Below the pieces are notes generated by a model. The model did not search any database. It saw only the letters and a program-made list of their open reading frames with translations, and was not told the DNA's origin. The position numbers and the translations under genes are program-made. Positions 18,335 to 41,290 of a stretch of 64,000 nt of DNA are shown here, in pieces. The first letter of the stretch is position 1; every line of letters begins with the position of its first letter. The DNA is from Naegleria gruberi (Eukaryota): assembly GCA_000004985.1 (NCBI GenBank), contig GG738924.1, one strand, 5' to 3'.

Positions 18335-18726
18335 GCACAATAGTAAATTTGACTTTGGAAATGTTAGGGTGATTACAAATCATGATCACTTCATCAATGC
18401 AGTTCAGTCTCAAAATTGGCTTTTCTTGTACAAGCAAGTAAAAATAAGTGAAGAGCATTGTCTTTAGCATTTAACAGCATCTTTTAATTCATGCACCTTC
18501 TTTGAGTTTTTATTTCAACAAATTTCAAATAATAAAGAATAGTTTGTCAAAGTAAAACACTTGTGAGCTATACTCGCTGGTGTAATTTGTGGGCATCCTT
18601 GAGGATTTGGAATTAATAGCTTGGTCTATTATTCACATTCAACAGTTCTAGCAATGACTTAGAATTCAACCAGTACATTTGGAATTAAGTACCCAAACAA
18701 AAGGTGTTGGTGAACAAAAAACGTAA

Positions 18727-18815
18727 GGCGGCTTAGCACAGTGGCAGTGCATCAGTCTTGTAGGCAGAAATGCTGAGATAACTGAGGGTCGAGGGTTCAA
18801 TTCCCTCAGTCGCCT
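18727..18815 (+). tRNA. intron-containing tRNA (17-nt intron after position 37); anticodon loop CTTGTA|A gives TGT = Thr(UGU), with Tyr not fully excluded
   Basis: Acceptor GGCGGCT/AGTCGCC, D arm GCAC-AGTGGCA-GTGC, anticodon stem TCAGT...ACTGA separated by 24 nt (7-nt loop plus GGCAGAAATGCTGAGAT intron), variable GGGTC, T arm GAGGG-TTCAATT-CCCTC. A T run follows. Confidence 0.65.
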
Positions 18816-18836
18816 TTTGTTAATTGATAATCAAGT

Positions 18837-21172: not shown

Positions 21173-22414
21173 ATGTCTGATACGAATACCACCTTATCAA
21201 CAGAAGGTAATCACTCTCCTTCAGAAGGGATTCACTCTTCGTCGGAAGTGGAGTCAAATCATGACCGTCAAACTACACATCCTCACAGCCTCAAGGAGGC
21301 TGCGTCTACGGAACATACTAGTAATAAGTCTCTTGCTATTGACAAACAACAAGCCACAAAGAAACGGAATGCTATTAGAGAAGAGGCCAGGGACACTCCA
21401 TCAACCAATCCTACCTCCCCTGAGGTATTTGCTTCCGAAGCCTCGGGTCCAGCTGATGGCACCAGCATTATTGCTGAAGATGGTGACTCGGATCGCAATA
21501 GTGACATTTCTATGGAAGAGAGATCTATTGATAAGCTCAGACGACACCATCGTTATAACAGAGCTGTTGTGGTGTCCACTGACAATGTCAGTGCCATCCT
21601 TGACACCATTGGTATGAAGGACGACTCAATATATGGATCGAGAGTTGTTGAGAGCTTGGGTTGCATAATCCTTTTCTTCAAAAACGCCAAGTTGCTAACC
21701 TCTGCAGTTACTGCTGCATCCAGAGCCAAAATTCCAATGTTCGCTCAAACCACTAAAACAGCTTACAAATACCAAATTGGCAAAGATCTCAATGCAAGCA
21801 ACATCTCCAAGCTGGTTAAAAAACTTGGCCCTACCATAGTAACCCTCAACGTCAGTAACAGAAATGGTAGTGAATATTGGGCTATGGGAACTAGTGCTAA
21901 AATATCCACGGCAGACTCTAAAAGCTTCAAACTTTCCAAGGTCAACACAGACGAAACCATATTTAGAATTGCTTTTCCTGGTAAAGAAAAAGACCTGTAC
22001 AAGCTAGTCAGTGCTGTCAGTACCCAGTGGAAAGTACGTGTTGTCAAAGCTACCCTTAATAACAAAGTTGCCTATCTCAGTATCAACAAAAAAGAAATTA
22101 CGAACAATGTAACTGAAACTATTAAGGTCAAAAATCAAGCATTCAAAAACCTGTCCTTTTCTGCCAAGGTAGCCAAATCTATTGCTCACAGAATGGCCAA
22201 TGTGGAAACCAAAATATCAGAACTAACCACCACCATGTCCATGATCAATAAGACTGTAGCTAGATTTAAGATTAAGGACATACTTGACAGTATCTCTGAA
22301 CTTGCAGACACTGTAGCCACCATCAACACCAAACTCAACTCTCTGACTAAACCTACTGCCCAAGAACGTAAGGGTAATAGTAGTAACCGTCAGAGACGTA
22401 GAAGATCGTATTAA
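21173..22414 (+). CDS. retroelement ORF1 (413 aa; S/T-rich N-terminus, coiled-coil middle, basic tail RQRRRRSY)
   Basis: Position and composition are typical of non-LTR ORF1 proteins. It is immediately followed by ORF2. Confidence 0.55.
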   Translation: MSDTNTTLSTEGNHSPSEGIHSSSEVESNHDRQTTHPHSLKEAASTEHTSNKSLAIDKQQATKKRNAIREEARDTPSTNPTSPEVFASEASGPADGTSIIAEDGDSDRNSDISMEERSIDKLRRHHRYNRAVVVSTDNVSAILDTIGMKDDSIYGSRVVESLGCIILFFKNAKLLTSAVTAASRAKIPMFAQTTKTAYKYQIGKDLNASNISKLVKKLGPTIVTLNVSNRNGSEYWAMGTSAKISTADSKSFKLSKVNTDETIFRIAFPGKEKDLYKLVSAVSTQWKVRVVKATLNNKVAYLSINKKEITNNVTETIKVKNQAFKNLSFSAKVAKSIAHRMANVETKISELTTTMSMINKTVARFKIKDILDSISELADTVATINTKLNSLTKPTAQERKGNSSNRQRRRRSY

Positions 22415-22415
22415 T

Positions 22416-23945
22416 ATGAGCAACACTGGTTTGTCCTTCAAGTTAGCAACTGCTAACTTTGCAGGTACTGGATGGGTAAAGCAATCCCAAATGCTTTCAT
22501 TTATTGAAGACCAGTCAATACATGTACTTAATGTACAAGAAACCCATCTACCAAGCTCGGCCCTTAGTGAACACTATTGGCAAAACAAACACTTCAGATC
22601 CTTCTTTTACCCTTCCCTTGTCTTTACCTCCAACGCACCAGAGACTGACAAAGGAGCAGGCGTTGCTACAATTGTAAAACCATCCCCACTCACGAAAGTT
22701 CTTACTTTCATCGAGCATGTTGTTGGCAGAATCACTGAGCTCATTTTAGAGCATAAACAGTTGGGAGTCCTCAGAATATTTAATTGGTACGGACCTGCAA
22801 ATGACTATAACATCAACAGACAACAATTTATGATTAACACTATCAATATCCTTACACCTATCATCCAATCCTCAGTGCTTCACAATGAGAGAGTGATTAT
22901 ATTAGGTGATCTGAATGCCACAACCACAACCTACACCAAGACTTATCATGGGCCACATGAGAAACAACTTGCAGAGTTTTGCAATTCCCTTAGGCTCTTC
23001 GATATAGCACCAGCTATCAATCGCCCCTCACACCAACAACGTAACAAACAGTCACAAGGTTTCTCAAGACCGGACCATATTATATCTACACATGCTGACC
23101 ATGTAGACTGTGAGGACATTGATACACCTCATGCCCACAAATTGCTCACCATCTCATACACCTTAGCTAACAACTTTGACTTCCCAGAGAAGTTTAACAA
23201 GGTGTCTATACCAGCTACTGTCTTGTCTAGAGATTCCAAAGCCATCAATGCTACCTTTTTAACCAAAAGTCCCAAAACACTTAAAGAGGTCCAAAAAGTA
23301 TTACAAGATATCACAGTACAATATGGAAAAGTGGTTAATGATAAACCAAAGCTCATCACAAACAACAAACGAATAATCCAACTCCAAAAGTATATCTTTG
23401 AAATCAAACAACTATCTCGACACAAAAGAGTATCCAATATAACAGCTCAATTCTTAGAAGGCAACTTTAGCTCCAACAATGTAGAACTAAAACTCAAGCT
23501 AGCCAAACAAGAGCTTAACTCTTTGATTGGTACTTTATTGGCAAATAGAAAGAAAGTTTTTATGGAAAGAGTGAATAATCTTAGTTCCAAATACCCCTAT
23601 TCCTATGCATTCAGAAAGGAACTATCATGCTCTTCTATTCTTGGCATTGTCAAACACAACCACAACAAAACCATCTCTAAACACTTCGAAGACATGAGCA
23701 ATACAACACAAAAAGTCACCAAAGCCCTCCCTGACATTAACAAAAACAGGAAACTCAAGTCATGGAGACTCACTCATATCTCAGTTAAAGATTTAGGAAA
23801 AACCATCAAGAAGACTAAAAACTCCATGGCTGGCTATGACAACATCTCAGTGCCCCTTATTAAAGTGTTTCTTAAAAGAAAACCAACAATAAATAAACTA
23901 ATGGATATAAAGCTCACACTACAACTTCTACCTATTCTTAGGTAG
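22416..23945 (+). CDS. retroelement ORF2: AP-endonuclease domain plus truncated RT N-terminus (509 aa)
   Basis: EEP motifs LNVQETH, GDLNA, SDH; RT motif 0 near the C-terminus. Confidence 0.6.
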   Translation: MSNTGLSFKLATANFAGTGWVKQSQMLSFIEDQSIHVLNVQETHLPSSALSEHYWQNKHFRSFFYPSLVFTSNAPETDKGAGVATIVKPSPLTKVLTFIEHVVGRITELILEHKQLGVLRIFNWYGPANDYNINRQQFMINTINILTPIIQSSVLHNERVIILGDLNATTTTYTKTYHGPHEKQLAEFCNSLRLFDIAPAINRPSHQQRNKQSQGFSRPDHIISTHADHVDCEDIDTPHAHKLLTISYTLANNFDFPEKFNKVSIPATVLSRDSKAINATFLTKSPKTLKEVQKVLQDITVQYGKVVNDKPKLITNNKRIIQLQKYIFEIKQLSRHKRVSNITAQFLEGNFSSNNVELKLKLAKQELNSLIGTLLANRKKVFMERVNNLSSKYPYSYAFRKELSCSSILGIVKHNHNKTISKHFEDMSNTTQKVTKALPDINKNRKLKSWRLTHISVKDLGKTIKKTKNSMAGYDNISVPLIKVFLKRKPTINKLMDIKLTLQLLPILR

Positions 23946-24561
23946 TTTGTAGCCTGGTTACTGCTGTTTTTAGGCATTAAGCTTTATTCAGCAGGTCCAG
24001 AAATTAAATAAACTAATCAATACAATCATACTATGATTTCTTAACAAAAAGCAAAAACTAAACTAAATTAAAGCAATCTGACAATAAACCAAGTTGTTTT
24101 TTGGAGAAACAACTCCCATATAAAAAAACCTACTCTTGTAGGAAAAAAAAATCGGTAAAAACCAAAAAGTTAAGAATTAAAAAACCTACTCAACCGTCTT
24201 GACACTTACGAATCAAAACGAGAATGAGAAAAGAGGTATGTTCAGTACATATTGCCTTACTAATAGTAAGGGAAAGGTATCAGATACCTTCTAATCAACA
24301 TAAAGTTGATCTGTCGGTTTTAGATCACCAACAATTGGTTTTAGATCACCAATCATGATAAAAAACATCAATAAATGATGTCAAATATCAAATAATAATA
24401 CAAAGATAAAAAGATGATAACAATCATCTTTCAATAATACAAATAGAGTGAAATCTTTCAATCAATTGAGAAAATATTTGGGGATTGATTAAAAAATCAC
24501 ATCTAAAGTATTAAGGACAAAGGTTAGAACCTTTGATTTGAATAAACTAATAATAATAGAG
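23867..24561 (+). repeat. direct repeat copy 1 (695 bp; the 3' end of ORF2 plus 3' UTR). It ends at N gap 24562-24611.
   Basis: About 98% identical to 24791-25492. Differences are the poly-A length (9 versus 14) and a few SNPs. Confidence 0.85.
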
Positions 24562-24790
24562 NNNNNNNNNNNNNNNNNNNNNNNNNNNNNNNNNNNNNNN
24601 NNNNNNNNNNNTGACATTTGACTTGATTAGATGTTTCTCTGAATTAACGTAAGGTAAGTTGGAAAATGAAGCTGTTGATGTGCTGCTGGAAATGTGAGAC
24701 TCTAAATCCTGTGAAATGTTTGGTCTTTGCATTTTTTTTGAAAGGTCACAGCTAGTTGGTTTGTTTGTGGTTTTTACCCATCAGTTGATA

Positions 24791-25492
24791 TGTTTCTTAA
24801 AAGAAAACCAACAATAAATAAACTAATGGATATAAAGCTCACACTACAACTTCTACCTATTCTTAGGTAGTTTGTAGCCTGGTTACTGCTGTTTTTAGGC
24901 ATTAAGCTTTATTCAGCAGGTCCAGAAATTAAATAAACTAATCAATACAATCATACTATGATTTCTTAACAAAAAGCAAAAACTAAACTAAATTAAAGCA
25001 ATCTGACAATAAACCAAGTTGTTTTTTGGAGAAACAACTCCCATATAAAAAAACCTACTCTTGTAGGAAAAAAAAAAAAAATCGGTAAAAACTAAAAAGT
25101 TAAGAATTAAAAAACCTACTCAACCGTCTTGACACTTACGAATCAAAACGAGAATGAGAAAAGAGGTATGTTCAGTACATATTGCCTTACTAATAGTAAG
25201 GGAAAGGTATCAGATACCTTCTAATCAACATAAAGTTGATCTGTCGGTTTTAGATCACCAACAATTGGTTTTAGATCACCAATCATGATAAAAAACATCA
25301 ATAAATGATGTCAAATATCAAATAATAATACAAAGATAAAAAGATGATAACAATCATCTTTCAATAATACAAATAGAGTGAAATCTTTCAATCAATTGAG
25401 AAAATATTTGAGGATTGGTTAAAAAATCACATTCCAAAGTATTAAGGACAAAGGTTAGAACCTTTGATTTGAATAAACTAATAATAATAGAG
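24791..25492 (+). repeat. direct repeat copy 2, a 5'-truncated solo copy of the non-LTR 3' end
   Basis: Begins exactly at TGTTTCTTAAAAG and ends in ...AATAATAATAGAG, abutting the DIRS terminal repeat. Confidence 0.85.
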
Positions 25493-25610
25493 GGTGGGCA
25501 AGGGTGGGACCATAGTATGACAATTTTTTTGAGCATACTTTCTATTATTAGTTTATTCAATTGTTGTTTTCAAGAAACACTACTTTATCTCAGTAAACTT
25601 CGATAAGAAC
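25493..25610 (-). repeat. DIRS copy 1 3' terminal repeat (GGTGGGcaaGGGTGGGAC..ATGAC..TTTTTTTGAGCATAC..GATAAGAAC on the plus strand)
   Basis: 103-bp direct match to 29543-29645. A related motif recurs at 33582-33660, 39945-39965 and 41218-41233. Confidence 0.75.
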
Positions 25611-25643
25611 ATGTTTCTTAAAAGAAAACCAACAATAAATAAA

Positions 25644-27926
25644 CTAATGGATATTGTCCCGAGAAAGGAGAGTAGTAGACAAGTGGCGAGCTGCAAGAGC
25701 TTCTTGTCTTTGATAAGGTTGTAAAGATTTCACATCCTTATGTCTAGTCCCCATAATAATATCCTGAGTAGGAATTCCCTTGATAATACTCTCAGTAGTT
25801 GCACCAATACGTAAACTGTGACCAGAAACAGTGATTTCTGAATCAACAGAGAACATAGCATTCTTGATAAGTTGAGAAACATCTTCAGTGTTGAAGAAAA
25901 TATTGTCCTGCAATGAAAACAATGGTGAATCTGCTTTTTTGAAATGCTGTACAGTGTTCATGTAATCAAAAAGCAATTTCACTGGACACACTGAAGGATT
26001 TTCAAGATGCTTGTCAATAGTAATCGGCTTTTCTAGTAGAAAGAAATCTGTTTTGTGACCACTGAGATCTAATTTGATGTTACCATTTCTAAGCTTTGTA
26101 ACATAACCCCACTTGAGTCTAGCTAATTCACCTGGTCTAGCGAAAAGTCTGAAACCAATGACTAACATGGCACTAGTGAGTTTGAAAATGAAAGGATCAT
26201 AATGATCTTTTCTCTGAATGAAACCTTCAATATGATGATAGAAAATTGGATCACGTTTCAAAGCTTTTCTATCAATCAAGGACCAAATAAGAGTAATTCC
26301 TCTTTTAATCTTATCATAAGACCATGAAATTGGAAAAACTCTTCTCTCAATATTGGCCCAAAATTGAAGGGATGGTCTCAAGGCTTCAACACGAGATGTT
26401 TGACCTTGAATTGTAAGATAAGCTGCATAATACTCAATAGCATAAGGGTCATCCATTGAAATATTGAATGCAGTAATAAACCATAAGAAACCATTATAGT
26501 TTCTAGTGTAAAGTTTGAAGGTTTCTTCCTTAATCGAAACCAACATCCCTAAATCTCTGGTTTGAAGTATAAGTTTCCATCCAGATGAGCAATTATGAAC
26601 GTCGTTCCTTCGAATTTGATCCATAATTCGGATAATAGTTTGATTAAAAGCATCCTTCTTGTGATACTTTTTCTCTTCTTTAATAGCTTTAAGAGTAGAG
26701 GCCACCAAATCGAGGAGCTCCATTCTGGAATTACAAATGTCGCTATTGATCTGGATTTGATAAGATGAATGAGAGCTTGACTGATCAATCCTATTGGAGG
26801 AACACAATAACTCACTAGTTCTTTTTCCCAAAGACTTTTGAACGCGTCGTTCTCTTTCCATGAATTGAATACAAGGGTAGTTGCCGAACTCGTTGTTGCA
26901 AATCTGTCCACATGGTGTATTCCAAATTCTTGGTTGACTAATTCGATTAGTTCCTTGGTGGATCCCCAATCCATCAATCGACTCAACCTGTCTGCTAGGA
27001 AATTCTGTTTGGATGGGATGTAAATCACTTTGCAAATCCACCAATTTCTTCTCATTAGAATCTTTGAGATGTCTCTTGCTATCTTTGCGAGATCGTCTTT
27101 TGATCCATAACCCTTCTTTAGATATGCCACGGCTACCATGTTGTCTACTCTCAATTCGAAATTTGTGAAATCTGGATAAAGATTTAATTCGTCTGCTTGT
27201 TTGAAATAAAGCAGTAAGGCTCTTAGTTCCTTGACATTGATGTGCTCTTCTCCATTGAACTTTCCAACAGTAACGATTGAACCTGAGTGAATGCCGAAAC
27301 CTTGAGGTGTTGCATCTGAATTCACAATCACTGGGAGAATCCAATCCAATTCGAACGGATGACCATCGTTCTTTTGAATTAACTCCCTTAGAATCAATAA
27401 ATCCTTGAATGCGCCTTTGTGAATTTGCATTGATGCGTGCCAACCTCTTCCTGATACTACTGAAACCATGTTCTTTCGAAGACGACACATGAATGGTGAA
27501 AGGTACTTGTTGGCAATTGTTAGAAATTCCAACTTTCCTAGGAACTTGGCAACTCTCTTGCATGGAACATAAAGCCGTTTCTGGGAAGCATTGAGTAGCT
27601 CCTCTATGAATTCTAAAGCTGTAATCCTTTTGTCTTCTGGAATTTTTACCAAACCTTGATGAAAGTCTAACAAAACTCCTAGGTATTCTATTAATTGAGT
27701 TGGATTTAAACAACATTTGTCTTTTTGAATGAGGAATCCAAACTCTTCTAAATCCTTTAGAACTATATCTCTGTCTAAGATCAACTGATCTTTTGAATGA
27801 TTTACCACTAAGATATCGTCTAAATAAATGAATACCGAGATTCCTCTTACTCTCCATCTTTGAACTAAGACCTTCATTATCTTGGAGAATAATCTTGGAG
27901 CAATGTTCAGACCGAATGGTAGGCAC
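25644..27926 (-). CDS. DIRS-like tyrosine recombinase ORF (760 aa), overlapping the RT ORF in another frame
   Basis: C-terminal catalytic region ...ARPGELARLKWGY...GHSLRIGATT...TRHKDVKSLQPY (R..HxLR..Y), as in DIRS-1 ORF2. Confidence 0.7.
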   Translation of the reverse strand: MPTIRSEHCSKIILQDNEGLSSKMESKRNLGIHLFRRYLSGKSFKRSVDLRQRYSSKGFRRVWIPHSKRQMLFKSNSINRIPRSFVRLSSRFGKNSRRQKDYSFRIHRGATQCFPETALCSMQESCQVPRKVGISNNCQQVPFTIHVSSSKEHGFSSIRKRLARINANSQRRIQGFIDSKGVNSKERWSSVRIGLDSPSDCEFRCNTSRFRHSLRFNRYCWKVQWRRAHQCQGTKSLTALFQTSRRIKSLSRFHKFRIESRQHGSRGISKEGLWIKRRSRKDSKRHLKDSNEKKLVDLQSDLHPIQTEFPSRQVESIDGLGIHQGTNRISQPRIWNTPCGQICNNEFGNYPCIQFMERERRVQKSLGKRTSELLCSSNRIDQSSSHSSYQIQINSDICNSRMELLDLVASTLKAIKEEKKYHKKDAFNQTIIRIMDQIRRNDVHNCSSGWKLILQTRDLGMLVSIKEETFKLYTRNYNGFLWFITAFNISMDDPYAIEYYAAYLTIQGQTSRVEALRPSLQFWANIERRVFPISWSYDKIKRGITLIWSLIDRKALKRDPIFYHHIEGFIQRKDHYDPFIFKLTSAMLVIGFRLFARPGELARLKWGYVTKLRNGNIKLDLSGHKTDFFLLEKPITIDKHLENPSVCPVKLLFDYMNTVQHFKKADSPLFSLQDNIFFNTEDVSQLIKNAMFSVDSEITVSGHSLRIGATTESIIKGIPTQDIIMGTRHKDVKSLQPYQRQEALAARHLSTTLLSRDNIH

Positions 27927-28704
27927 TTGTAATGGTAAATCTGGCCGTTGTACCTGAATCCCAATAACTTTCGATCTGTTTCCTTCACTGGAACGTGATG
28001 ATAACCTTTCATCAAATCTATTTTGATTCCTAACATGTCTTTTGATAGAAACTTTGAGTTTTGTGAATATGATCCATTTTGAATGAGTCGTTGTTTATAC
28101 CAGCATTTATGGATCTCAAATCTAGGATTAGACGAAACTGGTCTTTGCCTTTCTTCGGAACCACGTGAATCGGATTTATGACAGTGTCCTTGTTTCCAAT
28201 TTCTATAATATTGGTTTTGAGTAAATCTGAGATTTCGCTCTTTAACCATGAATCTTCCTTTTCTGAAAAATGAGATCTTAGTGGAATATCGATCCATTTT
28301 TCTTTTTCTGAATGGATTGGAATACCCTCTCTTATCCATTCTGCAACAGTTTTGGGGAAGATTTGCCACTTTTTCCAAAACTGTTGTAATCTTCCTCCTT
28401 GGAAGGAGGGAGTGGAAGAGTCATTCTGACTTATCCTTATCTTTTCCTTGGAATTTACCACCGTTTCCTTGACCCTTATTGTTTTTCTTTTGAAACGGTT
28501 TCTTCTTAGAATACTTCTTGGTAATTCCCTTTGGACCTTGTTGCTGCTTGGTTGCTTTGTAGTAATGATATGTTGTTCTAATATTATGAAGTTCACTTTC
28601 GGCAGCAGTTTCGAAACTATTAGTAGAAATGTATCTGTTAAGGAATTCTCTACCAACATCGAAAGTGGAAACTTGTAAACCTTCTTTAAGGAAGAGGGCT
28701 TCAA
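26549..28704 (-). pseudogene. DIRS-like RT/RNase H(/methyltransferase-like) ORF split by a frameshift into 28030-28704 (224 aa) and 26549-28378 (609 aa)
   Basis: The RT N-terminal block ...IIEIGNKDTVINPIHVVPKKGKDQFRLILDLRSINAGINNDSFKMD is in one frame; ...IDLMKGYHHVPVKETDRKLLGFRYNGQIYHYKCLPFGL...FIYLDDILVV continues in another. Copy 2 has the same region in a single frame. Confidence 0.65.
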
Positions 28705-29548
28705 CTTTGCAAATCATTCTACAAAGTTCTGTAATCTCTGTCATGACTGTAAAATCAAGTGGAGAATTCAATGCATATTCCAACAATTCAATTTTGATTT
28801 GAGTTAACTCTACTAGTTTAGAATAACCAATACTGTTAATCTCATCCAATCTAATGTCTGGGGCAAACTTGGAAATCACATCCTTGTATTTAAGGAGCAA
28901 ATATTGAATTCTTCTCTTGGTCTCCTCTTGTTTACGGTCTTTAAGTATCTCGGAGGATACTGCAGAAAGTAATAAATCATCTCCAATAGATGAAGGAACA
29001 TTGTAAGAACTTCTAAGGTCTCTATAAGTTTGACGTAACCAAACTTCTGGAGATATAGCTTCTGGATTAACAAAATCATCATCTGATTCTTCTTCTCTCT
29101 CCTGAACTTTCTTAGTAAGTTCAGAGATATTTCCTGTTACGGTTCTCAAAACTCCAATCATTTCTTGCATTTGGGCTTTGATCGCCATGATATCATGTTC
29201 AGATGAACTACTGGTAAAACTATCTCTACCTGAATTGGAAGAAGACGAATTGTTTGACGAAGAGGGTGCAGTTGAAGAACTATCCAACAATGTTGAATTG
29301 CTTAGCAACGAACTGGAAACAACAGTTGAAATACCATCATATAAGGCACTGTTAGATGATGAAACTGAAGTAGATTGTTTGCGCTTATTTCTATTAGCTA
29401 CAGGTGACATGGCCTTTAACTTTCTAAGCTTCTTAGCAGCTTGTTGTTTTCTTGCTTTCACTGGTGTTGTGGGGTATTCTACTTCAACTGCTGGGAGATC
29501 TTCATCAGATGAAGAGGAGTCAATATCTTGAGGCTTCTTAGCGACCAT
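28421..29548 (-). CDS. DIRS-like ORF1 (gag-like, 375 aa)
   Basis: MVAKKPQDIDSSSSDEDLP.... The C-terminal LLEYALNSPLDFTVMTEITEL block is shared with ORF1 of copies 2 and 3. Confidence 0.65.
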   Translation of the reverse strand: MVAKKPQDIDSSSSDEDLPAVEVEYPTTPVKARKQQAAKKLRKLKAMSPVANRNKRKQSTSVSSSNSALYDGISTVVSSSLLSNSTLLDSSSTAPSSSNNSSSSNSGRDSFTSSSSEHDIMAIKAQMQEMIGVLRTVTGNISELTKKVQEREEESDDDFVNPEAISPEVWLRQTYRDLRSSYNVPSSIGDDLLLSAVSSEILKDRKQEETKRRIQYLLLKYKDVISKFAPDIRLDEINSIGYSKLVELTQIKIELLEYALNSPLDFTVMTEITELCRMICKVEALFLKEGLQVSTFDVGREFLNRYISTNSFETAAESELHNIRTTYHYYKATKQQQGPKGITKKYSKKKPFQKKNNKGQGNGGKFQGKDKDKSE

Positions 29549-29645
29549 AGTATGACGATTTTTTTGAGCATACTTTCTATTATTAGTTTATTCAATTGTT
29601 GTTTTCAAGAAACACTACTTTATCTCAGTAAACTTCGATAAGAAC
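29543..29645 (-). repeat. DIRS copy 1 5' terminal repeat; includes the ORF1 ATG (29546-29548)
   Basis: Same sequence and orientation as 25508-25610. Confidence 0.75.
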
Positions 29646-30540
29646 AGCCAGAGAATGGACCATCCCCATGTCCAAATGGGGACACTCCAGAAAGTACCAC
29701 CATTTTTCGAATAAAGTAAAAGAGGAGTGGAGAGCGAGTCTCCCTCTCGTTACTTGGTTCCAATCAGGGTTCTCCACAGGAGCAGCAGTTTGCTGCCGAT
29801 TGGTATCAAGCTTTTCGTGGTTAGTTCTTACTAGTTGCGTACCGCCATCGCTAGCCGTTGCAAATATAAAAAATGAATTTGTTGGGACGCAATTTTGTTA
29901 CGTGGCTACTTGTACAGTGATGTAAAGCTTCGGAATATTATTGAATCATATCAATTAATACAAATATCATCAACATAGACAAATAATACAGCACGTTTAC
30001 TTCAAATTTGACGCGTTTTTTGAAAGAAAATAAATTATTTAGAAAAAATTTTGTTGTTCTTCTGCTGTCAAATCCAAAATAAGCATTTCAATAGAACAAC
30101 ACCTAACCACTCGTTCTTACTCATTTCTACATATTTTTGAGAATGCTGCCACCCCAAGGGGTGTGTTAATGCGAGGATTCATAATTTGAAGTCAGATTTC
30201 AAAACTACCTTACAGCACGTTTACTTCAAGTTTGACAAGATTTGGGGAAATTAAAATTGTTTTTTTTTAAAATTTAAAGTATTTCATCTTTCAATTTTGA
30301 TTTGGCAAGTAAACTCAACTCCATTTGAAAAGAATCTGTAACGATAATATTTTATTCAACAAATGTTAATTTCTCAATGGAATTACTGCACACATACGCG
30401 CATTGAGAAAAGTGCTCTCCAGTCGAGAGGAAGGAAAATACATCCCTGTTGATGATTGATACCGACACTACCCTCAAATTTGCCATATTCGTCGTCATCA
30501 GTAGGAGTTGTCATTTTTTTTGATTGTGATATGTGATGGC
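29646..30540 (-). pseudogene. fragmented partial duplicate of the 5' exon region of the F-box/LRR gene at 30692-32358
   Basis: Piece A, 29695-29765, matches 32132-32196. Piece B, 30380-30540, is about 85% identical to 32196-32385, including the ATG and upstream CCATCACATATCA(C/T)AATCAAAAAAA. The two pieces are separated by a 615-bp insert, and DIRS copy 1 abuts at 29645. Confidence 0.55.
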
Positions 30541-30691: not shown

Positions 30692-32358
30692 CTAATGCAG
30701 ATAACCATCCTCACTATCATCACTCTCTCTATCGTCACTCTTGACATCGTCATCGATAACACGCGTCGGGATAACAACCTCCTCTGTATCATACTCCTCT
30801 GTGTCATACTCCTCTGTGTCACCCTCCTCTGTGTCATCCTCGGTCCTGATGCTACACAAACCGCATCGAATCAATTTACGGAGGTGTTTTTTTCCAGCGG
30901 TTTCGATTTCATTATCATCTAAACTGAGATATGTGATATTCTTCAGTTTAGAGAGGCATTCTGCCCCTGTATCTCCGATTCCATTATTATCTAAACTGAG
31001 GTGTGTCAGCTTATTCAATTCAGAGAGGTATTTCGCTCCATCATCTCCAATTCTGTTGTCATTCAAACCGAGGCGAGTGAGTTTCTTCAATTTAGATAGA
31101 TGTTGTGCTCCATCCTCGATTCCATTGCCATTCAAATCGAGATGAGTGAGATTGGTCAATTCAGAGAGGCTTTGTGCTCCAATAGACCCAATTTGATTGC
31201 CACTCAAATCGAGTTGAGTGAGTTTCTTCAATTTAGATAGGCGTTGTGCTCCATCATCCTCGATTCGATTGTAACCCAAATCGAGTTGAGTGAGATTCTC
31301 CAATTTACAGAGGCTTTCTGCTTTAATAGCTCCAATTAGATTACTCCTCAAATTGAGTTGGGTGAGATTGGTCAATTCACAGAGTCTTTCCGCTCCGTTG
31401 GGTCCAATTTGATTGAGACATAAATTGATTTGAGTGAGGTTCTTCAATTGAGAGAGGTGTTCTGCTCCTTTACCATTTGATTAATACTTAGATCGAGTTC
31501 AGTAAGATTCTCCAACCCACAGAGTCTTTCAGCTCCATCACCCGTGATTCGATTATTGCCCAAATTGAGTTTTTTGAGATTCTTCAATTCGGAGAGGTTG
31601 TTTACACCCTCATACCCAATTTGATTGCCACTCAAATCGAGTTCTGTGAGCTTCTTCAATCCACGGAGGCTTTTCACTCCGTTAGCCCCCAATTTAGTGA
31701 TTCTCAAATTGAGTTGAGTGAGATTGGTCAATGAGGAAATGTGTTCAGCACCAGCATCACCGATTTCATTGTTGCCCAAATTGAGTTGGGTGAGATTGGT
31801 CAATGAGGAGAGGCGCTGTGCTCCATTGGGCCCAATTCCATTGTCGAACAAATCGAGTGCTGTGAGATGGGTCAATGAGGAAACATGTTTTGCTCCATCA
31901 TTTCCGATTTCATTGTGTCCCAAATTGAGTTTTTTGAGATTGGTCAATGAAGAGAGGCCCTTCACCACGGTGGGTTTAATTTTGTTACGACACAAATCGA
32001 GTTGTGTGAGATTGACCAATTTGGTGGAAATGGTACCACATTGCTCTTCAATAAGTTCGACTCCATCGATTGTTAGAGAAAGCACCTTATCCATTTCCAA
32101 ATTGGACCGCTCTATAAAGTCTGTCCATTTTTCGAATAAAGTAAAAGAGGGGTGGAGAGCGAGTCTCCCTCTCGTTACTTGGTTCCAATTACTGCACACA
32201 TACGCGCATTGAGAAAAGTGCTCTTTAGTCGAGAGAAAGGAAAATATATCCAACAAATTTTCGTCAGGAAGGGAATTGATCCCAACACTACCAGAGCCGC
32301 GACTCGCTTTGGCACTACTCTCGGCTTTGCAGGATTTGTCGTCAGGGGGAGTTGTCAT
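30692..32358 (-). CDS. F-box / leucine-rich-repeat (RNI-like) protein, apparently disrupted by a -1 frameshift near 31445-31470 (annotated as ORFs 31444-32358 and 30692-31447)
   Basis: F-box LPDENLLDIFSFLSTKEHFSQCAYV. About 20 LRRs of the type LTxLxLxxNxIGxxGAxxL span both ORFs. Restoring one base (ATGGT to ATTGGT) reads ...LSINQIGKGAEHLSQLKNLTQINLCLNQIG. Acidic tail EDDTEEGDTEEYDTEEYDTEE. Confidence 0.6.
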
Positions 32359-32596
32359 TTTTTTTGATTATGATATGTGATGGCAAATTTGACGTGTCAC
32401 TCCCACAAGCGGGATCTATTTTTAGTTTGGTTTGAAATTTTAAAAGCGTGCTCCAAAACACCTCCCATAATTTCCGCATGATTAAAATACACCCAGTGTT
32501 CGAGACACAATGCCATCGTGGATGATATTTGTCATCTGGTGTTTATTGGAACATTATCAAATAAATGGATTAGACAAAAGTTACCAAAATCTTAGT

Positions 32597-32657
32597 AGTA
32601 CCGTTTCAGTTTTACCTAGTTGTAATAAACATCGGAAATTTATTTATGAATTTACAC
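32597..32657 (+). repeat. 61-bp segment, inverted copy at 40356-40416
   Basis: AATCTTAGTAGTACCGTTTCAGTTTTACCTAGTTGTAATAAACA(T/C)CGGAAATTTATTTATG. Each copy lies 30-40 bp from an (AT)n microsatellite. Confidence 0.7.
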
Positions 32658-32683
32658 AAAAAACTCGAGGAAGTTAAATGATC

Positions 32684-32686
<3 letters not shown>

Positions 32687-32716
<30 letters not shown>
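32687..32716. repeat. (TA)15 microsatellite
   Basis: Seen directly. Confidence 0.95.
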
Positions 32717-32718
<2 letters not shown>

Positions 32719-33581
32719 TATTTTCAACATCAATTTGTTCCAGTTAATTTTAAATCCATAGCTCTAAGAACCTCGTTAAAACCATTTGTCTTTTTCTTGT
32801 TGTTAAAGTTTTTCCTTGCTTTGATGAAGGATCTGTTAAACTCCAAAACAGTATCATCTAAAAACAATTTTTCCTCTTTGTTCACATCTAATTCAACTAA
32901 AGTATCCTTCAGCTTGTATTGTTTTCTAGCAATTGTTACATCTTGTACCTTGAAAATATCATGTTTTTAAAACCACAAAATAATAAAATAATAAATTAAG
33001 ACAAATGGATTAAAAGCTCAAGGATTGAGACACCAATTAGTGAATCAACCTTGGAACCTGCTTTAAAGGATATAAATCTTTATTTAGCAGGTCCCTAGAA
33101 ATTAAAGTCTCAAAATTATGAAAAACTTATCGATAGTTTTGAAGCTAAAGATAAGAAAAAACATAGAGTATGTGAATAAATTGTAAAACCTGTGTCTTCC
33201 ATGAAGAAACAGAAAGCTAATTGAAGGAGAAGAACTTTCCAATTTGGGATATTCGAAACTTCGAGACTAAAGTAGTCAATTTGAGTAAGAAAGTGAAAAG
33301 CAACTGCATACATTGGAAGAATCACCAAAAAGTAAATGAATAACAAATAGAAAGTCCTAAAATCACCATTAATATATAAAAATCTATATGAATTTTCTGA
33401 AACAAATGGAATGAAAAATAAAATGATTCGAATCTATTAGAAACTGTCATCCAAAAAATAAGTTAGTGAATAAATGTAAAAATTGCACATCTTGAATGTA
33501 CACAGCCGCACTCTGAAATTAGCCCACTTACTGGGTGCTAATGAGCGAAATAAAGGCTGAAAAATTGTAAATACTAATTAA

Positions 33582-34231
33582 GGGTGGGTATGGGTGGGAC
33601 TTTGCCTTAATGATGACATGATGTTGAGACTATTTTTTGAGCATAATTTTTAAAATAATATTTTAATAATTTTGTATAAAAACACACTAGTTCTTCACCA
33701 TATTCAGAACTCCCATTGTTCAATTCGTCAATAATCAATTTCAATTCATTTCTACAGGCAATAACTTCTGATGAATTGACAGATAATCCATCATAACCAT
33801 GAATGCATTTTCCCTTGTAAACTTCATTCAATTCTAACGTCTTGTTTAGCATTACAAATTTCTTATTTTTGTAATCTAAAATCTTATCTTCAGTATAATT
33901 TTTGGAATTCGCAGCCATAACCCCAAATGCAATTTCTCCAATTTCTTCGGAGAACATAGTAAAATTTTCCGTAAAAAAGTCATGAAACGTTTTGGACTTC
34001 TTCTTCCAAAATTCAAATAACAAAGATTGGAATATTTCTGCATTCCTATATAAGTTATGTTTTCCCAAAATAAATAGGTATGTTAATACATCTCTAGATA
34101 ATGAAAATTCATTCCAATTTCCAACTCTCAATGCATAATAATAACTTCTAAGGGCTGGTAAAATTGTCTCAAAAAGAATTGTAAAGTTTTTGGCAGCTAT
34201 TGTAGTAGTTCTAACCTGAATTGTAAAGTTT
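33582..34231 (-). mobile_element. retroelement remnant: a DIRS-type 3' terminal-repeat motif (33582-33660) fused to an upstream 170-210-codon ORF with no ATG, plus a 35-bp tandem duplication at 34178-34251
   Basis: On the reverse strand the ORF ends ...KNYAQKIVSTSCHH*, running through ATGCTCAAAAAATAGTCTCAACATCATGTCATCATTAAGGCAAAGTCCCACCCATACCCACCC. The protein (..FGVMAANSKNYTEDKILDYKNKKFVMLNKTLELNEVYKGKCIHGYDGLS..) is not recognisable. Confidence 0.35.
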
Positions 34232-34641
34232 TTGGCAGCTATTGTAGTAGTTCAAACACCAAGCAAAGCGAATATCTCCAACATTCGTCAAAGAGTTTCA
34301 GCAAGCAAATCTTCAACTTCTACCTACAAGTCAGGTTACATCCCAGTAACTGACAATGGTAGCTCAGCTTCACTCCCCTCTGTGGTTGACCCAACAAGCA
34401 AAACCTTGGATAACAATCAAGCTGGTTCTGAAAAGAACCTTGATGCTATTTTCAACGCCATCACTTCTTTGGGTGAGAGAATAAAGCATCTCGAAGCTGT
34501 TCCTCCTGTTCTGCAACAAGCTAATCAACTTGATGAAGACCCTGATGAGGAATCCGCTGATGAGGATTTCACTGGTAAACATTGGGGTCTAACTACTATC
34601 AAGGAGATTAGACGTAACTACGAAGTTGGTGATAGACTATC

Positions 34642-36064
34642 TGTTATAGGCGATAAAAACTCGCACGAAGACCCAGGCAGTTAAATTCGTTGGTATGAAC
34701 CTTCCAGGCGAAAAATACTTCTAGGATAGATTCCATTAAAATTATCCATCCCTAAAAGTCTGCTATATCAGGGATGGAATTAGGCCTTGCACAAATAGAA
34801 TCCAATTAGACAACACTTATCTGTTAAGGTAGGAATTATCATTAATATGATAAGTCTCATTAAACAAGCTCTATTAGCATGAATTTAGAGCCATTATGTG
34901 TAATATCTTGTTTTATGAACCTATTCAATATCTACTAGGATTTTATGAATTATCAAGTATTAAAGAAGTATATTTAATTGGTAAATAATCACAGATTAGT
35001 TTTTAAAAATTTAAAATCTCCAATTCAATGAATTTAACACAATAAATTAATGTGTGATACAAAAGTACAATGAAATTTATTATTTTGATGTTTTGACATG
35101 GTGAACATCTGGTTAGGCTGAGAACTTGCATGTTTAGAGAGAAATTTAAGATCTTTATGATCTCATCGAAATAAAACGAAATATTTGATATGGTACATCT
35201 ACAATAATACTAATAACAGTTTATTAATGTTTCAAGAAGTTTGGCTATGTACTTTTGGCATGAATCATGATATGTTATCATGAATATTCCGAAGTTGGTA
35301 AAACAACAAAATGATGAAAAACTGATAATAAATATATTGTTTATTATGTATTTGAATAGTAGTTATGAAAGACATTTTCAAAGTTGGTGAAGTACATGTT
35401 GAGTTATGGTCCATGTACATGTTGAAAATATACATGAACCTATCATCATGATAACCAATAGGAAAATGTTCGGAAGTGATTTTACCTGATGGAATCGACC
35501 ATGCTGAACAATACTAGATGAAAGTTTTCCAAATTACCATATGAATCTGGCAGTGATGATGATTTTAGTGAAAATATTGAATTTCACTAAAATATTACTA
35601 TTATCAGATTTATTTCCACAAATATTACTATTATAATGATGATAAATAACAATGATGATGGTTGGAAGTTGTTCCGATGATGGTTTACCAACTTGAATTT
35701 TTCCCAAGTGAAAATTAAATTCCAAATTTATAATCACAATCCAATAATAAAAAATACTACCAGTAATACTATTAGGATGATGTTGAGATGATGATGTGAA
35801 AGTTTGGTGGATTCATGGGGTGAAATCACTCTGAAAATCACCAAAGTGTTCCCAATGTGTGTTTGGGCTGAAATATTTTTTCTTAATGGTGGAAAATAAT
35901 GGAACGTGTATTTGTTCGGTGTTATTAATACATACAAGGCAACACCAAGAACTTTTGTCCATCAAATAAGCACCTTACTATTTTCGCATAGACATTTTAG
36001 GCTATTTTTTTTGGCCTATATATTTTTTGCCTGTTTTTCAGGCGAAAAAAGTAGCCTAGAACAT
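34642..36064. mobile_element. ~1.42-kb non-autonomous TIR (DNA-transposon-like) insertion inside ORF1 of DIRS copy 2
   Basis: The empty site is seen in copy 3 (GATAGACTATC|CGATGG). The insert ends are TGTTATAGGC...GCCTAGAACA (10-bp TIR, one mismatch), flanked by duplicated ATC/TATC. Interior is AT-rich with no ORF over 70 aa. Confidence 0.55.
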
Positions 36065-36567
36065 ATCCGATGGAGATGTCTTAAGTTTTGTCTCAGCCAA
36101 AACACTTCGTCATTACTCTTCCAATGAGGCGTTGTTGAGTAGAGTTCAAGTTTTGATGGCTCGATTTGAATCTGTCATTCACAACTCTCGTAACTATCCT
36201 CGTCTGCAAGAAATTCAATCCAAAGGCTTGCAAAAGATGATGGAAATGTTACATTTGAAGTCTAAATTACTTCAGTTTGCTCTGAGCCATCCATTAAATG
36301 TAACCAACATCATTGAAATCACTGAGTTGGTGTTTCTCCTCTCTGAGGTTGAGAAAATCTTTTTAGAAGAAGGTTTGTTCGAAAGTAACTTTGATGTTGC
36401 GAACCAATTTATTCAACCCTTCATCCAAAGCAACACGTTTGCTGATATAACAGAAAAAGCTCGTCAAAAGAAGAGAGAGAAGTCTATAGTAAAACATGCC
36501 ATCACCAGCAAGATCCAAAAACCTCTAAAGATGAAAGAAAAGTTTCAAAAACCGTCCTCTCATCAAG

Positions 36568-38553
36568 GTGGCATCCCTAACAGCTATTCAAAGCCATTCA
36601 ACAATTACAACAAGAGTGGTTCCTCTTTTCAAAAGTCAGGAGATTCCAAGCCAAAGTACAATAACAATGGTGGAGGATCTTTCAAACAAGACCTCTGACT
36701 TGGTAGGTTGCCGTCTCAACAAGTTTGTACCTCAGTGGGAGAGTTACAACTTCAACCCATTTATAGTGGATTGGATTCGAAATGGAGTCCCAATCTACTC
36801 AAATCCCACCCTTTGGAAAGAATTCAAACAAAGGAAGAATTTCTCTCCAAAGGAAACCTCTTGGATGGATCAGGAAATCCAAGATATGCTGAGTTCCAAT
36901 GTAATAGAGATTGGAAACAGTTCAACAATATTGAACCCAATAAACATTGTACCCAAGAAGGGTTCGGATCAATTTCGCTTTATTCTAGACCTAAGGAAGG
37001 TCAATTTAGGAATAAAGGACAGTTCCTTCAAGATGGACAACATTCAAAGATGTTTGAAATTTGTTCAGAAGGGAATGTGGGCAACAAAGATAGACCTGAA
37101 GAAGGGTTACTTCCACGTTCCAATCAGGGAGAAACATCGCAATCTTCTTGGATTCCGGTACAAGGACAAGATTTATCAGTTCAAATGCCTACCGTTTGGG
37201 CTAAGTCAAGCTCCCAGAAATTTCACAAAGATTATGAAAGAGTTGGTGACCAAGTGGAGAAAGAAGGGTATTCTAGTATTTATTTACATAGACGATATTT
37301 TGATTCTAAGCAACAGCAAAGAAACTACCCAACTGCTCACAGACATAGTCATGAAGGATCTGGAGACATTGGGATGGATAATCCAGAAAGAGAAAAGCGT
37401 ATTAGCACCGTGTCAACACATAGAGTTTCTCGGTCTGGAACTGGATCTCGTACTTGGCCTTGTGAAAATCCCAGTCAACAAACAATCAACAGCCTTAGAA
37501 ATGATTCAAAAATTCTTATCAGCAAACCAACGGAACAGGTTTGTAGCATGCAAGAAAGTAGCACAATTCCTCGGAAAGATGGAATTTCTAACTCTTTCAA
37601 ACCACTACTTTGCTCCCTTTCTTGCTCGTCTTCGGAAGGATATGGTGAAAGTAGTAAACGACAAATCTTGGCACGCATCAATGAGAATATTCAGAGGTGC
37701 AGCGAAGGATCTAAATATTTTGAAAGATCTGATTCAGGAAAACAGTGGAATTCCCTTCGAACTGAATTCAATGAACCCAATTCGAGTGAATTCAGATGCC
37801 TGCCCAACAGGCTATGGAATTCACGCAGAGTCAACCATTACAATTGGAAGATTCACTTCCTCAGAACACATCAATGTGAAAGAGTTAAAAACACTCCTCA
37901 TTTTCTTCACACAAGCAGATCGGTTAAACCTTTATGGTCCTGGACAAGCATTCGAAATCAGAGGCGACAATGTTACAGCAATTTCCTATATAAGGAGAGG
38001 TTACGGAGTCATAGAAGAACTCTCTCAAATTGCCAGAGACCTCTACAAGATCTTGATGAGAAGAAAATGGTGGATTTCAAAGGTGATTTACATTCCCTCA
38101 AAGGAGAACAATCTAGCAGACAGACTGAGTCGCTTAACAGAATGGAAATCATCTCAAGAACTACTGCATCTAGTTCAGACAGAATTTGGAGAACACCATG
38201 TGGACAGGTTCGCGACATCGGAATCAACCACAACAATTCAATTCAACTCATGGATAGAGAACGACACATTCTTGAATCCATGGGAACAAAATCTGATGAG
38301 TTATTGTGTTCCTCCTCTGGGTCTGATATCTCAAGCTCTAGTTCATTGCATAAAATCAGAAGCGAAAGCGACATTTGTAGTTCCAGACTGGCCCTCTTCG
38401 ATATGGTTTCCAGTCTTGCTAAAGATATCAGAAAGGATAATACCTGTTTCCCGAAAGATGCTTATAATAACGCCCTTGTCAGAGTTGCAAGACAAGTTCG
38501 AGACTTCCAATTTCCTGGTTGTTCAAGTGCATGGCAAGTTGTTCAAGCAATAA
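36568..38553 (+). CDS. DIRS-like RT/RNase H ORF of copy 2 (661 aa, uninterrupted)
   Basis: RT motifs as above. Confidence 0.65.
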   Translation: MASLTAIQSHSTITTRVVPLFKSQEIPSQSTITMVEDLSNKTSDLVGCRLNKFVPQWESYNFNPFIVDWIRNGVPIYSNPTLWKEFKQRKNFSPKETSWMDQEIQDMLSSNVIEIGNSSTILNPINIVPKKGSDQFRFILDLRKVNLGIKDSSFKMDNIQRCLKFVQKGMWATKIDLKKGYFHVPIREKHRNLLGFRYKDKIYQFKCLPFGLSQAPRNFTKIMKELVTKWRKKGILVFIYIDDILILSNSKETTQLLTDIVMKDLETLGWIIQKEKSVLAPCQHIEFLGLELDLVLGLVKIPVNKQSTALEMIQKFLSANQRNRFVACKKVAQFLGKMEFLTLSNHYFAPFLARLRKDMVKVVNDKSWHASMRIFRGAAKDLNILKDLIQENSGIPFELNSMNPIRVNSDACPTGYGIHAESTITIGRFTSSEHINVKELKTLLIFFTQADRLNLYGPGQAFEIRGDNVTAISYIRRGYGVIEELSQIARDLYKILMRRKWWISKVIYIPSKENNLADRLSRLTEWKSSQELLHLVQTEFGEHHVDRFATSESTTTIQFNSWIENDTFLNPWEQNLMSYCVPPLGLISQALVHCIKSEAKATFVVPDWPSSIWFPVLLKISERIIPVSRKMLIITPLSELQDKFETSNFLVVQVHGKLFKQ

Positions 38554-38688
38554 GGGATCTTAGTATCCTTTCATCAATAGCTGAGAAAACATTCAGAACT
38601 TATAATAGAATTTATGGTGGTTTTCTCTGGTTTATCAATGTGTTTGATCTCACCATTGATGATCCTATAGCTATTGAATATTGTTGAA

Positions 38689-40030: not shown

Positions 40031-40271
40031 GCAACTCTACATTGGAAGTAATAATCTTTATGGTAAATCCAAAGAAAATAAATTCAAAGAAAAAACAAAC
40101 TTTGTAAAAATATTACAAAAACACTGTTATTAGAAGTAGTAAAAGTAGAGTTATGATAGTTGTTTATTAAAACAAAGAAAAACTCTTACAACAAGAAATA
40201 GACAACTAGATTCATGGAGGTTGATGGAGTAGTTTAAAAATAAATGGAACAACTAATATCTAACATCAATT

Positions 40272-40274
<3 letters not shown>

Positions 40275-40310
<36 letters not shown>
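40275..40310. repeat. (AT)18 microsatellite
   Basis: Seen directly. Confidence 0.95.
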
Positions 40311-40312
<2 letters not shown>

Positions 40313-40335
40313 CAAATATCATCATTTGACTACTT

Positions 40336-41290
40336 TCAGCTTTTATTGTTAAAAACATAAATAAATTTCCGGTGTTTATTACAACTAGGTAAAACTGAAA
40401 CGGTACTACTAAGATTATCGTATCTAGTGGGGAACTTATGAAAATTAGGGGTTCTGCTGGCCCATTTGCTGACTTTTTCAATGGTTTCTACTGCTTTTAC
40501 TTTTTCAGCAGATTTAATGGCCTTCTCTTGTTGTTTGGAGGTGATTTGGTCAAGTGAACCTCCTGATTTGTAGCTGTTAGAGAAGTTTTCAGCTGCTTCA
40601 AAGCCATTTTTAATGCCCATTCGAATACAGACTAGATTTAACTCAGAAATATTCTGAATAAATTCAAATCCTTGAAGAATAAGCGGTAAATCAAGGGTAT
40701 CACTCTCTCTCAAACGCTTGCAGATTTGAGAGATGATAAAAGAGTTTGTTAAAAGTAAAGAATAACCTTTACTTTTAATATCTTTTATACCAGATGAATC
40801 TGGAATGGGAGTGTCTACTTCTTTTCTGAACAACAATTCAAGAGCAGCCATTCTATTCTTGAATTCCAAGTTGTCAGCGTATGGAGCATTGGCTGTTTCG
40901 AATAGAAGAGAAACAGCTTCTTCCAACGGCAAATCTTCTTTCAATGACTCACCAAACATTCTTTGGTAAGAGTTGATGACGTGGTTTTTAAACCAATCAT
41001 CTGGTTCATCAGCAACTCTTGCTCTTTTACCAGAAACCTCTTCAGATGGGTTGGACTCAAACAATTCCATCGAAGAAGCGAGAGCAGAAGCACCTTGTGA
41101 ACCAACCTTGGCGGAAGGAGTTAGAACAATGACTCGTTGCTCGCTACCTGCAGAAGGTGAGCTAAGGTCTTTCGTTTTCTTGTTGTTCTTTGGTGTAGTT
41201 GGTGTTGGGGCCATTGTGATAATTTTTTGAGCATGGAAAAATACTCAACTTATATTTTATTAAGTTTACAATGAAAACAAGTCCATTCTT
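40336..41290 (-). mobile_element. solo gag-like ORF (292 aa, 40336-41214) of a third DIRS-like subfamily, with upstream ATGCTCAAAAAATTATCACA-ATG motif; its 3' end lies in the 61-bp inverted segment
   Basis: MAPTPTTPKNNKKTKDL.... The same conserved leader motif precedes ORF1 of copies 1 and 3. No RT or YR follows. Confidence 0.45.

Follow-up and report, generated by a model that had tools for sequence, protein, structure and literature searches.

Putative split direct repeats with an internal junction copy and a non-coding tail in a DIRS-order retrotransposon of Naegleria gruberi

Introduction

PAT elements are tyrosine recombinase (YR) retrotransposons that bear a methyltransferase (MT) and carry A1-B1-A2-B2 repeats, the placement of the internal repeats varying between subgroups (PMC4157794). 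In the reverse-transcription model for such split direct repeats (SDR), A1 must equal A2 and B1 must equal B2 at insertion, and the internal B1A2 restores the ends that are missing from a sub-genomic transcript (PMC6681497). Solo AB repeats have been reported for Ngaro elements (PMC8547959), and the internal copy of DIRS-1, its internal complementary region (ICR), has been shown experimentally to be essential (PMC7192593). According to a nematode survey, forms intermediate between the SDR arrangement and that of inverted terminal repeats (ITR) with an ICR had not been observed (PMC4157794). Elements of the DIRS order were reported from Naegleria gruberi in 2011 on the basis of pol similarity, as seven sequences in six families (PMC3266345); the literature searched, Repbase excluded, gave no description of the termini of DIRS-order elements of N. 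gruberi or of a G-quadruplex-type box in elements of this order. The present analysis concerns a 64-kb stretch of DNA of N. gruberi NEG-M, hereafter the window, and an element on its minus strand that we call copy 1. We propose, with a probability of roughly 0.7, that copy 1 is a tyrosine recombinase (DIRS-order) retrotransposon with split direct repeats, about 4.86 kb long and running from 29646 to 24791.

Results

Read 5' to 3', copy 1 consists of A1, gag, reverse transcriptase (RT)/(ribonuclease H, RH)/MT, YR, B1, A2, a C-rich box, a spacer and B2, all on the minus strand. The 5' terminal repeat A1 (29543-29646) and the internal copy of the 5' end, A2 (25508-25611), are direct repeats with 103 of 104 positions identical (blastn, E = 2.4e-47) and a single mismatch, A at 25522 against G at 29557; the 103-bp repeats of the original prediction are therefore real, in their common orientation as in their A/G difference. 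A1 opens with 30 nt of 5' extension, in which a small palindrome (CTTATC..GATAAG) is found, and continues with a B-complementary arm, the leader ATGCTCAAAAAAAT and ATGGTC. The right-hand copy (A1) contains the start codon of open reading frame 1 (ORF1; CAT at 29546-29548), and the left-hand copy (A2) repeats ATGGTC, the first two codons of ORF1. As had been described, the left copy lies after the YR stop codon (25644-25646), 33 nt beyond it, and on the plus strand the copy follows GGTGGGCAAGGGTGGGAC. The 43-nt B1 (25612-25654), which holds the last three YR codons with the stop and ends in ...AAGAAACA, is identical at 43/43 positions both to B2 (24791-24833), the 3' terminal repeat and inferred true 3' end, and to a further copy, B3 (23866-23908). 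B1 ends at 25612 and A2 starts at 25611, with zero gap between them. Since A2 directly follows the 3' sequence of the element, B1|A2 has the sequence of a junction between 3' end and 5' end, as in a circle; judged from sequence, it would be an internal direct copy of the B2-to-A1 join, that is, a stored circle junction, in agreement with the circular-junction footprint originally suggested. Neither rolling-circle replication nor free circles gained evidence from the present analysis. The near-identity of A1 with A2 and of B1 with B2 is a prediction of the SDR model (PMC6681497).

On the far side of A2 are the C-rich box CCCACCCTTGCCCACCC (25492-25508), which reads on the plus strand as GGGTGGGCAAGGGTGGG, a canonical G-quadruplex motif, and a non-coding 3' region of 658 nt, spacer C (24834-25491), so that A2 and B2 are separated by 675 nt. 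Downstream of B2, about 178 nt of unique sequence (24612-24790) is followed by an assembly gap of 50 N (24562-24611). Because the element is on the minus strand, the left copy of the plus strand is its internal 3' copy. The idea that the 103-bp repeats bound the element has consequently to be abandoned: the left copy is internal, and the box, the 0.66-kb spacer and a second 43-nt 3' end at 24791 come after it. The B1/B2/B3 repeats, the gap and the minus-strand orientation had no place in that prediction. The leader was correctly seen to be common to several families. The motif ATGCTCAAAAAA(A/T)T has four exact sites, all on the minus strand (25523, 29558, 39950 and 41221), and one with a single mismatch (33631), where 0.4 matches are expected by chance and none of 100 shuffles reached five; the sites at 39950 and 41221 stand before the ORF1 (gag) ATGs of other copies in the window.

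The termini are also related to each other by inversion. B repeats A positions 32-65 in inverted orientation; in copy 1 the reverse complement of B aligns with A at approximately 33 of 38 columns with three indels, the alignment starts at the very 3' end, and the inverted arm of A lies 30 nt inside the 5' end of the element. None of 1000 shuffles scored equally in copy 1, nor in L008 and L011, two metagenome loci described below, and 29 of 1000 were as good for the corresponding B' and A' of a tail-only unit at 33.6 kb, where the match is suggestive only. Because B is an inverted copy of inner A, the B|A junction forms a long imperfect palindrome, and the predicted fold of B1-A2 is an extended, imperfect hairpin whose tip is a small palindrome (z = -5.2 and -5.35 for the junction hairpins). 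The start of spacer C is an inverted copy of A positions 52-69 (18/18). To call the repeats direct and not inverted was thus right for the repeats themselves and incomplete as a description of the ends. The inverted match, which is present in several families, would suit a canonical DIRS1-like element with inverted terminal repeats, in which the internal B1A2 would be the ICR, and Piednoel et al. placed N. gruberi sequences in that group by tblastx (PMC3266345). Such an identity is nevertheless very unlikely: the internal copy has the same orientation as the termini and matches them at 99-100%, the inverted match is confined to about 37 nt and contains mismatches and gaps, within the element no inverted counterpart was found for the outer 30 nt of A (positions 1-30), and the published assignment used pol similarity and not termini. 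The arrangement accords with split direct repeats of the PAT/Ngaro type, rather than the DIRS-1 type (ITR plus ICR), as the original prediction had it.

An independent copy is available in L001, a 4,324-bp metagenome contig from ENA with 99% identity to copy 1. Its 5' flank differs; its 5' boundary (TGTTCTT...) and its B (4036-4078) are identical, and its junction ...AAGAAACA|TGTTCTTATCG... at 4078/4079 is that of B1|A2 in copy 1; its occurrence in an independent contig makes the junction a feature of the family. The L001 junction is direct, where other copies with inverted repeats would have spoken for a different arrangement. That a mis-join or a collapsed repeat created the second copy in the N. 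gruberi assembly is barely conceivable. The scaffold is indeed gapped (the 50 N at 24562-24611, and kilobase gaps elsewhere), and it holds a second spacer-plus-B unit, C-B3 (23866-24561, minus strand), that is 98.6% identical to 24791-25492; but 25493-25700 is gap-free, the same B|A junction was assembled independently in L001, the same architecture appears in L008 and L010/L011 from different samples, and the two spacer-plus-B units have different flanks, the upstream side of C-B3 ending at the N gap.

The tail that follows the junction is not peculiar to copy 1. A scan of JGI metagenomes with a single YR protein returned nothing; the scan was repeated with a YR alignment and gave six loci, among which L008 and L010/L011 were informative. 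In L008 (YR 34% identical), the YR stop is followed by B1 (72 nt), A2 (CATGCTCAAAAAAAT, ATG and some 19 codons), the box GTCCCATCCCTTCCCACCCT, a spacer with GGACCTGCTTAATAAAG, and B2, which equals B1 at 72/72 positions and lies about 340 nt from A2. L011 (YR 33% identical, GC 56%, zinc-knuckle gag) and its 99.9% twin L010 have the order A1, three genes, B1 (53 nt), 19 nt, A2, CCCACCCCCCCACCC, spacer, B2 and flank, with A2 identical to A1 (127/127), B2 identical to B1 (53/53) and a distance of about 400-410 nt from A2 to B2. The order YR - B1 - A2 - C3x4 box - spacer - B2 is accordingly common to copy 1, L008 and L011/L010. A unit of another family in the window (32962-33715, minus strand; the 33.6-kb tail) consists of a tail only, with an A-like leader TGGGAGTTCTG..ATGCTCAAAAAATA..ATG, the box CCCACCCATACCCACCC (33598-33582), GGACCTGCTAAATAAAG in the spacer (33094-33078) and a B-like end ...TTTTAAAAACA. 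Counting this unit, tails are found in four families, each with its own A and B, and their recurrence argues that the tail is part of a conserved architecture and not a chance neighbour. As to more incomplete or distant relatives, the contig of P0002 (a 77% pol relative) has 0.49 kb after the YR, and no flanking repeats were found in the distant DIRS-like L016. In L017 (RT 29%, YR 28%), direct repeats of 151 nt (6187-6337 and 12554-12704, 98% identical) bracket pol and YR, with about 2.1 kb from the YR to the second repeat and a sense-strand G-quadruplex motif 120 nt ahead of the latter. The recurrence of the tail also bears on a reading of copy 1 as similar to a long terminal repeat (LTR) element, bounded by 103-bp direct terminal repeats and ending at 25508. 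The repeats do flank all three coding regions, but this reading is highly improbable, given that the element's own 3' end, B1, precedes the left repeat and recurs 0.7 kb downstream as B2, that ORF1 starts inside the repeat and not after it, that box, spacer and B2 follow the left repeat in four families, and that the second copy in L001 extends over at least 246 nt. Moreover, the flanks, ...CTCTGGC and TATCAACT..., show no common target-site duplication, and no DDE integrase domain was found in any ORF by Pfam search.

Several observations weigh against copy 1 as a single SDR element. In L001 the second A runs on, over the 246 nt that remain to the contig end, into a second gag and not into a box; this stretch matches the first copy at 97% identity, and ATA stands in place of its start codon. 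Head-to-tail arrays therefore exist, the tail is not present after every B|A junction, and 103 bp does not hold as a fixed repeat length of the family, the second copy running for at least 246 nt into gag. In a related family (RT about 47% identical), contigs L003, L004 and L005 from three Logan runs (ERR2815209, ERR2815274 and ERR2815266, respectively) are tail-less circular permutations of one 4,097-bp unit; they have no C-rich box or flanks, and L003 has a 30-nt end overlap. These assemblies would be compatible with, and point to, an organism in which the family occurs as tandem arrays or extrachromosomal circles. The sequence flanking A1 on its 5' side (29647-30514) is a truncated F-box/leucine-rich repeat (LRR) paralogue, cut exactly at the 5' end of the element, and the remainder of the interrupted gene was not found beyond B2; since the gene is not resumed there, copy 1 is not demonstrable as one simple insertion. 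A2 and B2 are not adjacent in copy 1, unlike the textbook order A1-ORFs-B1A2B2, and the Pfam scores of MT and YR in its family fall under the curated cut-offs.

Part of this evidence would equally suit a cointegrate or tandem, in which the mobile unit is A-int-B (4,035 bp) alone and the left repeat is assigned to an adjacent, independent A-box-C-B unit of about 0.82 kb, which would be non-autonomous or solo, the two having come together because circles integrate at or beside resident junction sites or because multimers integrate. We consider this account, cause included, unlikely. It gains from the second, 97%-identical gag without a tail in L001, from the tail-less permutations L003-L005, and from the tail-only units at 23866-24561 and 32962-33715, the former of which is probably a solo tail. 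Against it, the adjacency YR-B1-A2-box-spacer-B2 recurs in the very different families of copy 1, L008 and L011/L010; every tail has the A and B of its own family, which suggests inheritance with the element; and the tail is non-coding, with A and B identical to those of its neighbour (103/104 and 43/43), as if copied in one replication cycle. Formally, the cointegrate and split-direct-repeat descriptions overlap in part.

The box stands out statistically. The pattern CCCACCC-N(0-6)-CCCACCC, read on the antisense strand as GGGTGGG..GGGTGGG, occurs twice in the window against 0.00 expected, and a scan for (G3 N1-7)x4 on both strands of the 64 kb returned the two boxes as sole sites; L008 and L011 each carry one such site, at the position homologous to the box. 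Its frame relative to the A2 ATG varies by family, with MVPPLPTLYYY* in copy 1 and MSSLRQSPTHTHP* in the 33.6-kb tail, so that it is not conserved as a coding sequence or peptide. In copy 1 the box falls in the loop of a hairpin predicted between the end of A2 and the beginning of the spacer (z = -5.5). Such an enclosing hairpin was rejected as a universal feature, being strong in copy 1 and L011 and absent or weak in the 33.6-kb tail and L008. No antisense G-quadruplex motif was found after the second repeat of the distant L017, which indicates that the box is not universal in the DIRS order, and a viral-contig scan for the box returned four GC-rich phage contigs, without DIRS genes and unrelated.

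In spacer C, a conserved GGACCTGCTGAATAAAG (24907-24923) lies in a predicted stem-loop, together with several ATTAGTTTATT motifs. The sequence GGACCTGCTNAATAAAG is present three times in the window (0.00 expected), exclusively in tails, and once in L008; it lies about 100 nt ahead of the 3' end in three Naegleria-type tails, and a stem-loop containing it is predicted in three families. No long ORFs were found in the spacer, and an Rfam search of 23.5-30.7 kb gave nothing relevant. TGGTCCCACCC was considered as a tRNA primer-binding site, complementary to the 3' end of a tRNA, and is unsupported: the three tRNAs of the window do not match it, and its TGG is missing in the 33.6-kb tail.

The coding content accords with the DIRS order. 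ORF1 (28421-29548, from the ORF list) encodes a gag-like protein of 375 aa, exactly XP_002669635, the 90% cluster of which comprises five N. gruberi proteins and the L001 protein; a Pfam search found neither a domain nor a zinc knuckle in it. The pol region (26549-28704), with RT and a Dam-like methyltransferase region, contains one frameshift near 28040-28084; the L001 pol is a single uninterrupted ORF of 637 aa, matched by two frames in copy 1 (tblastn). RVT_1 scores above the cut-off in both (E = 5e-23 in copy 1, 3e-26 in L001). Dam (PF05869) is weak in copy 1 and L001, with 19.6-19.9 bits under the cut-off of 28.1, and reaches 25.9 bits in copy 2 of the window and 30.1 bits, above the cut-off, in L011; it is annotated in the database for the relatives P0006-P0008, and its position in pol is identical in all carriers. 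The YR ORF of about 300 aa (25644-26546) has the same orientation as pol and is 98% identical to the L001 YR (tblastn). Phage_integrase is weak in it (E = 7e-4 and 1.6e-4; 19.9-21.9 bits, cut-off 27.1), the YR alignment shows RPGE and HSLRIG with little or no variation, and PF00589 is present in YR relatives at about 50% identity. Among the related proteins, P0066 of N. gruberi (EFC35816, 569 aa) has a gag part (to ...KKYSKKKP) that is followed at once by the last 210 aa of the YR, and is either an internally deleted copy without pol or the product of a predicted intron across pol.

The surroundings of copy 1 contain further mobile and repeated sequences. The intact F-box paralogue carries CTTATTGAAG 12 nt past the breakpoint, and CTTATCGAAG stands at the 5' end of the element; the 9/10 match is a single case and possibly due to chance. 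The F-box/LRR gene at 30692-32358 contains a tandem array of a 72-nt (24-aa) repeat at 30898-32030. On the other side, a LINE-like (long interspersed nuclear element) ORF with an Exo_endo_phos domain (22416-23945, plus strand) is cut by C-B3 where the RT should begin and reads into B3; the 413-aa ORF before it (21173-22414, plus strand; without a Pfam match) may be the LINE ORF1. A 174-aa ORF without a Pfam match (33607-34131, minus strand) runs into the A-like leader of the 33.6-kb tail, which suggests that a coding sequence was disrupted by this tail-only unit.

In DIRS-like copy 2 (plus strand, 34240-39943; pol 36691-38544) the YR breaks off after 39 aa, at 38681, where the copy adjoins its own 5' part in inverted orientation. 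The inverted arms are 36064-36935/38674-39545 (872 nt, 99%) and 34240-34641/39542-39943 (402 nt, 98%), with an extra 1.4 kb on the left side (34642-36063); the cause is either a rearrangement into a large palindrome or an assembly error. Inverted repeats of 85 nt (88%) at 32579-32735 and 40251-40425, each beside a (TA)n tract, bracket a 7.8-kb block with copies 2 and 3 and the 33.6-kb tail, and may mark where another mobile element, or an inverted duplication, begins and ends. A solo gag (40336-41214, minus strand) ends beside a (TA)n tract at 40.3 kb. Its leader (41205-41330) contains a TTCTGAGCGAAGTGAAGAA palindrome and CATGCTCAAAAAATT, blocks that are shared with other families, for which reason its 5' end is probably near 41306. 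Elsewhere in the window, direct repeats at 60109-63337 (minus strand), 70-76% identical with a spacing of about 1,655 bp (60225-61529 against 61879-63181), correspond to tandem paralogous ORFs; a tRNA-Thr(TGT) prediction of 91 nt (18726-18816, plus strand), with a tRNA-Val 400 bp upstream, suggests an intron; and V-ATPase subunit a and folylpolyglutamate synthetase are encoded, exact to XP_002669641 and XP_002669640.

Discussion

What the sequences show is a set of repeats in an order that is conserved across four families, together with a palindromic junction and conserved boxes. From these we infer, on the model of the published PAT/Ngaro scheme, where the transcript begins and ends, the circle, the site of recombination and what the C-rich/G-quadruplex box does. 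Transcription would start within A1, possibly at ATGCTCAAAAAAAT, about 20 nt before the ATG, and would terminate within the tail at a point past the conserved AATAAA stem-loop, leaving an RNA without the outermost 5' and 3' sequences. Reverse transcription would then copy the missing piece from B1A2 and yield a closed circle with a complete B2|A1 junction, and it can be hypothesised that the YR of the element recombines this palindromic junction with a target, without target-site duplication. Recombination of A1 with A2, or of B1 with B2, could give rise to tail-only solo units such as 23866-24561 and 32962-33715, and insertion into or beside resident copies to head-to-tail arrays such as L001. 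The box, kept at one structural position across families with 33% YR identity and very different base composition, is a candidate replication signal. We suggest tentatively, as a proposal that on sequence grounds is quite unlikely to hold in full, that this box, capable of forming a G-quadruplex in the antisense cDNA at the A2 boundary, may act in cis in priming, in strand transfer or in the synthesis of the second strand, and that these heterolobosean-type elements may represent a new architecture intermediate between ITR/ICR and SDR.

Among known elements, Ngaro shares with copy 1 the internal repeats downstream of the YR and the logic of a stored junction, and the tail-only units match its solo AB repeats. 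Ngaro has no MT, whereas the present elements show a Dam-like region, which is weak in copy 1 and exceeds the cut-off in L011. In Ngaro as in the echinoderm form of Pat1 the B1, A2 and B2 are adjacent, whereas a spacer separates A2 from B2 here; because of the Dam-like region and the non-adjacent A2 and B2, copy 1 is not regarded as a Ngaro element. The units at 23866-24561 and 32962-33715 likewise resemble the solo LTRs or solo AB repeats that arise by recombination between the repeats of one element, with the differences that the A part of the former falls in an assembly gap and that such units may be independently mobile. For annotation, tails and solo units of about 0.7-0.8 kb would otherwise stay unassigned, being non-coding.

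With DIRS-1 and the DIRS1-like elements there is agreement in the gene set, the putative MT included, in termini of which one partly repeats the other in inverted orientation, one side having an additional, offset outer stretch, and in an internal copy of the joined termini near the 3' end. The difference lies in the internal junction copy, which is direct here, and in inverted repeats that are short (about 37 nt) and imperfect; as the internal copy is direct and not complementary, the arrangement is not that of DIRS-1. The coexistence of direct junction copies with inverted terminal complementarity bears on the interconversion of ITR/ICR and SDR forms.

The closest likeness is to the PAT-like elements (Pat1, Toc3, kangaroo), with which copy 1 shares gag, an RT/(RH)/MT-like region and YR, the direct repeats A1...B1A2...B2 with B1 abutting A2, and the fact that no target-site duplication is seen; like Toc3, it has a gag without a zinc knuckle and a forward YR. 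By published structural definitions, and as assigned from termini and gene content, the arrangement of copy 1 is PAT-type. It differs from other PAT forms in the segment between A2 and B2, which here is a non-coding spacer of 0.33-0.66 kb and in other PAT forms is nothing or the YR gene, in the conserved C3x4 (antisense G-quadruplex) box with which that spacer opens, and in a B that is also an inverted copy of inner A. A further difference is that the published similarity test put N. gruberi sequences nearer to DIRS1-like references (PMC3266345); with ends of the SDR type and a listing as DIRS1-like by pol, structure-based and similarity-based classifications disagree for this organism. Copy 1 is an element of a known kind, with a variant end architecture and a previously undescribed conserved box.

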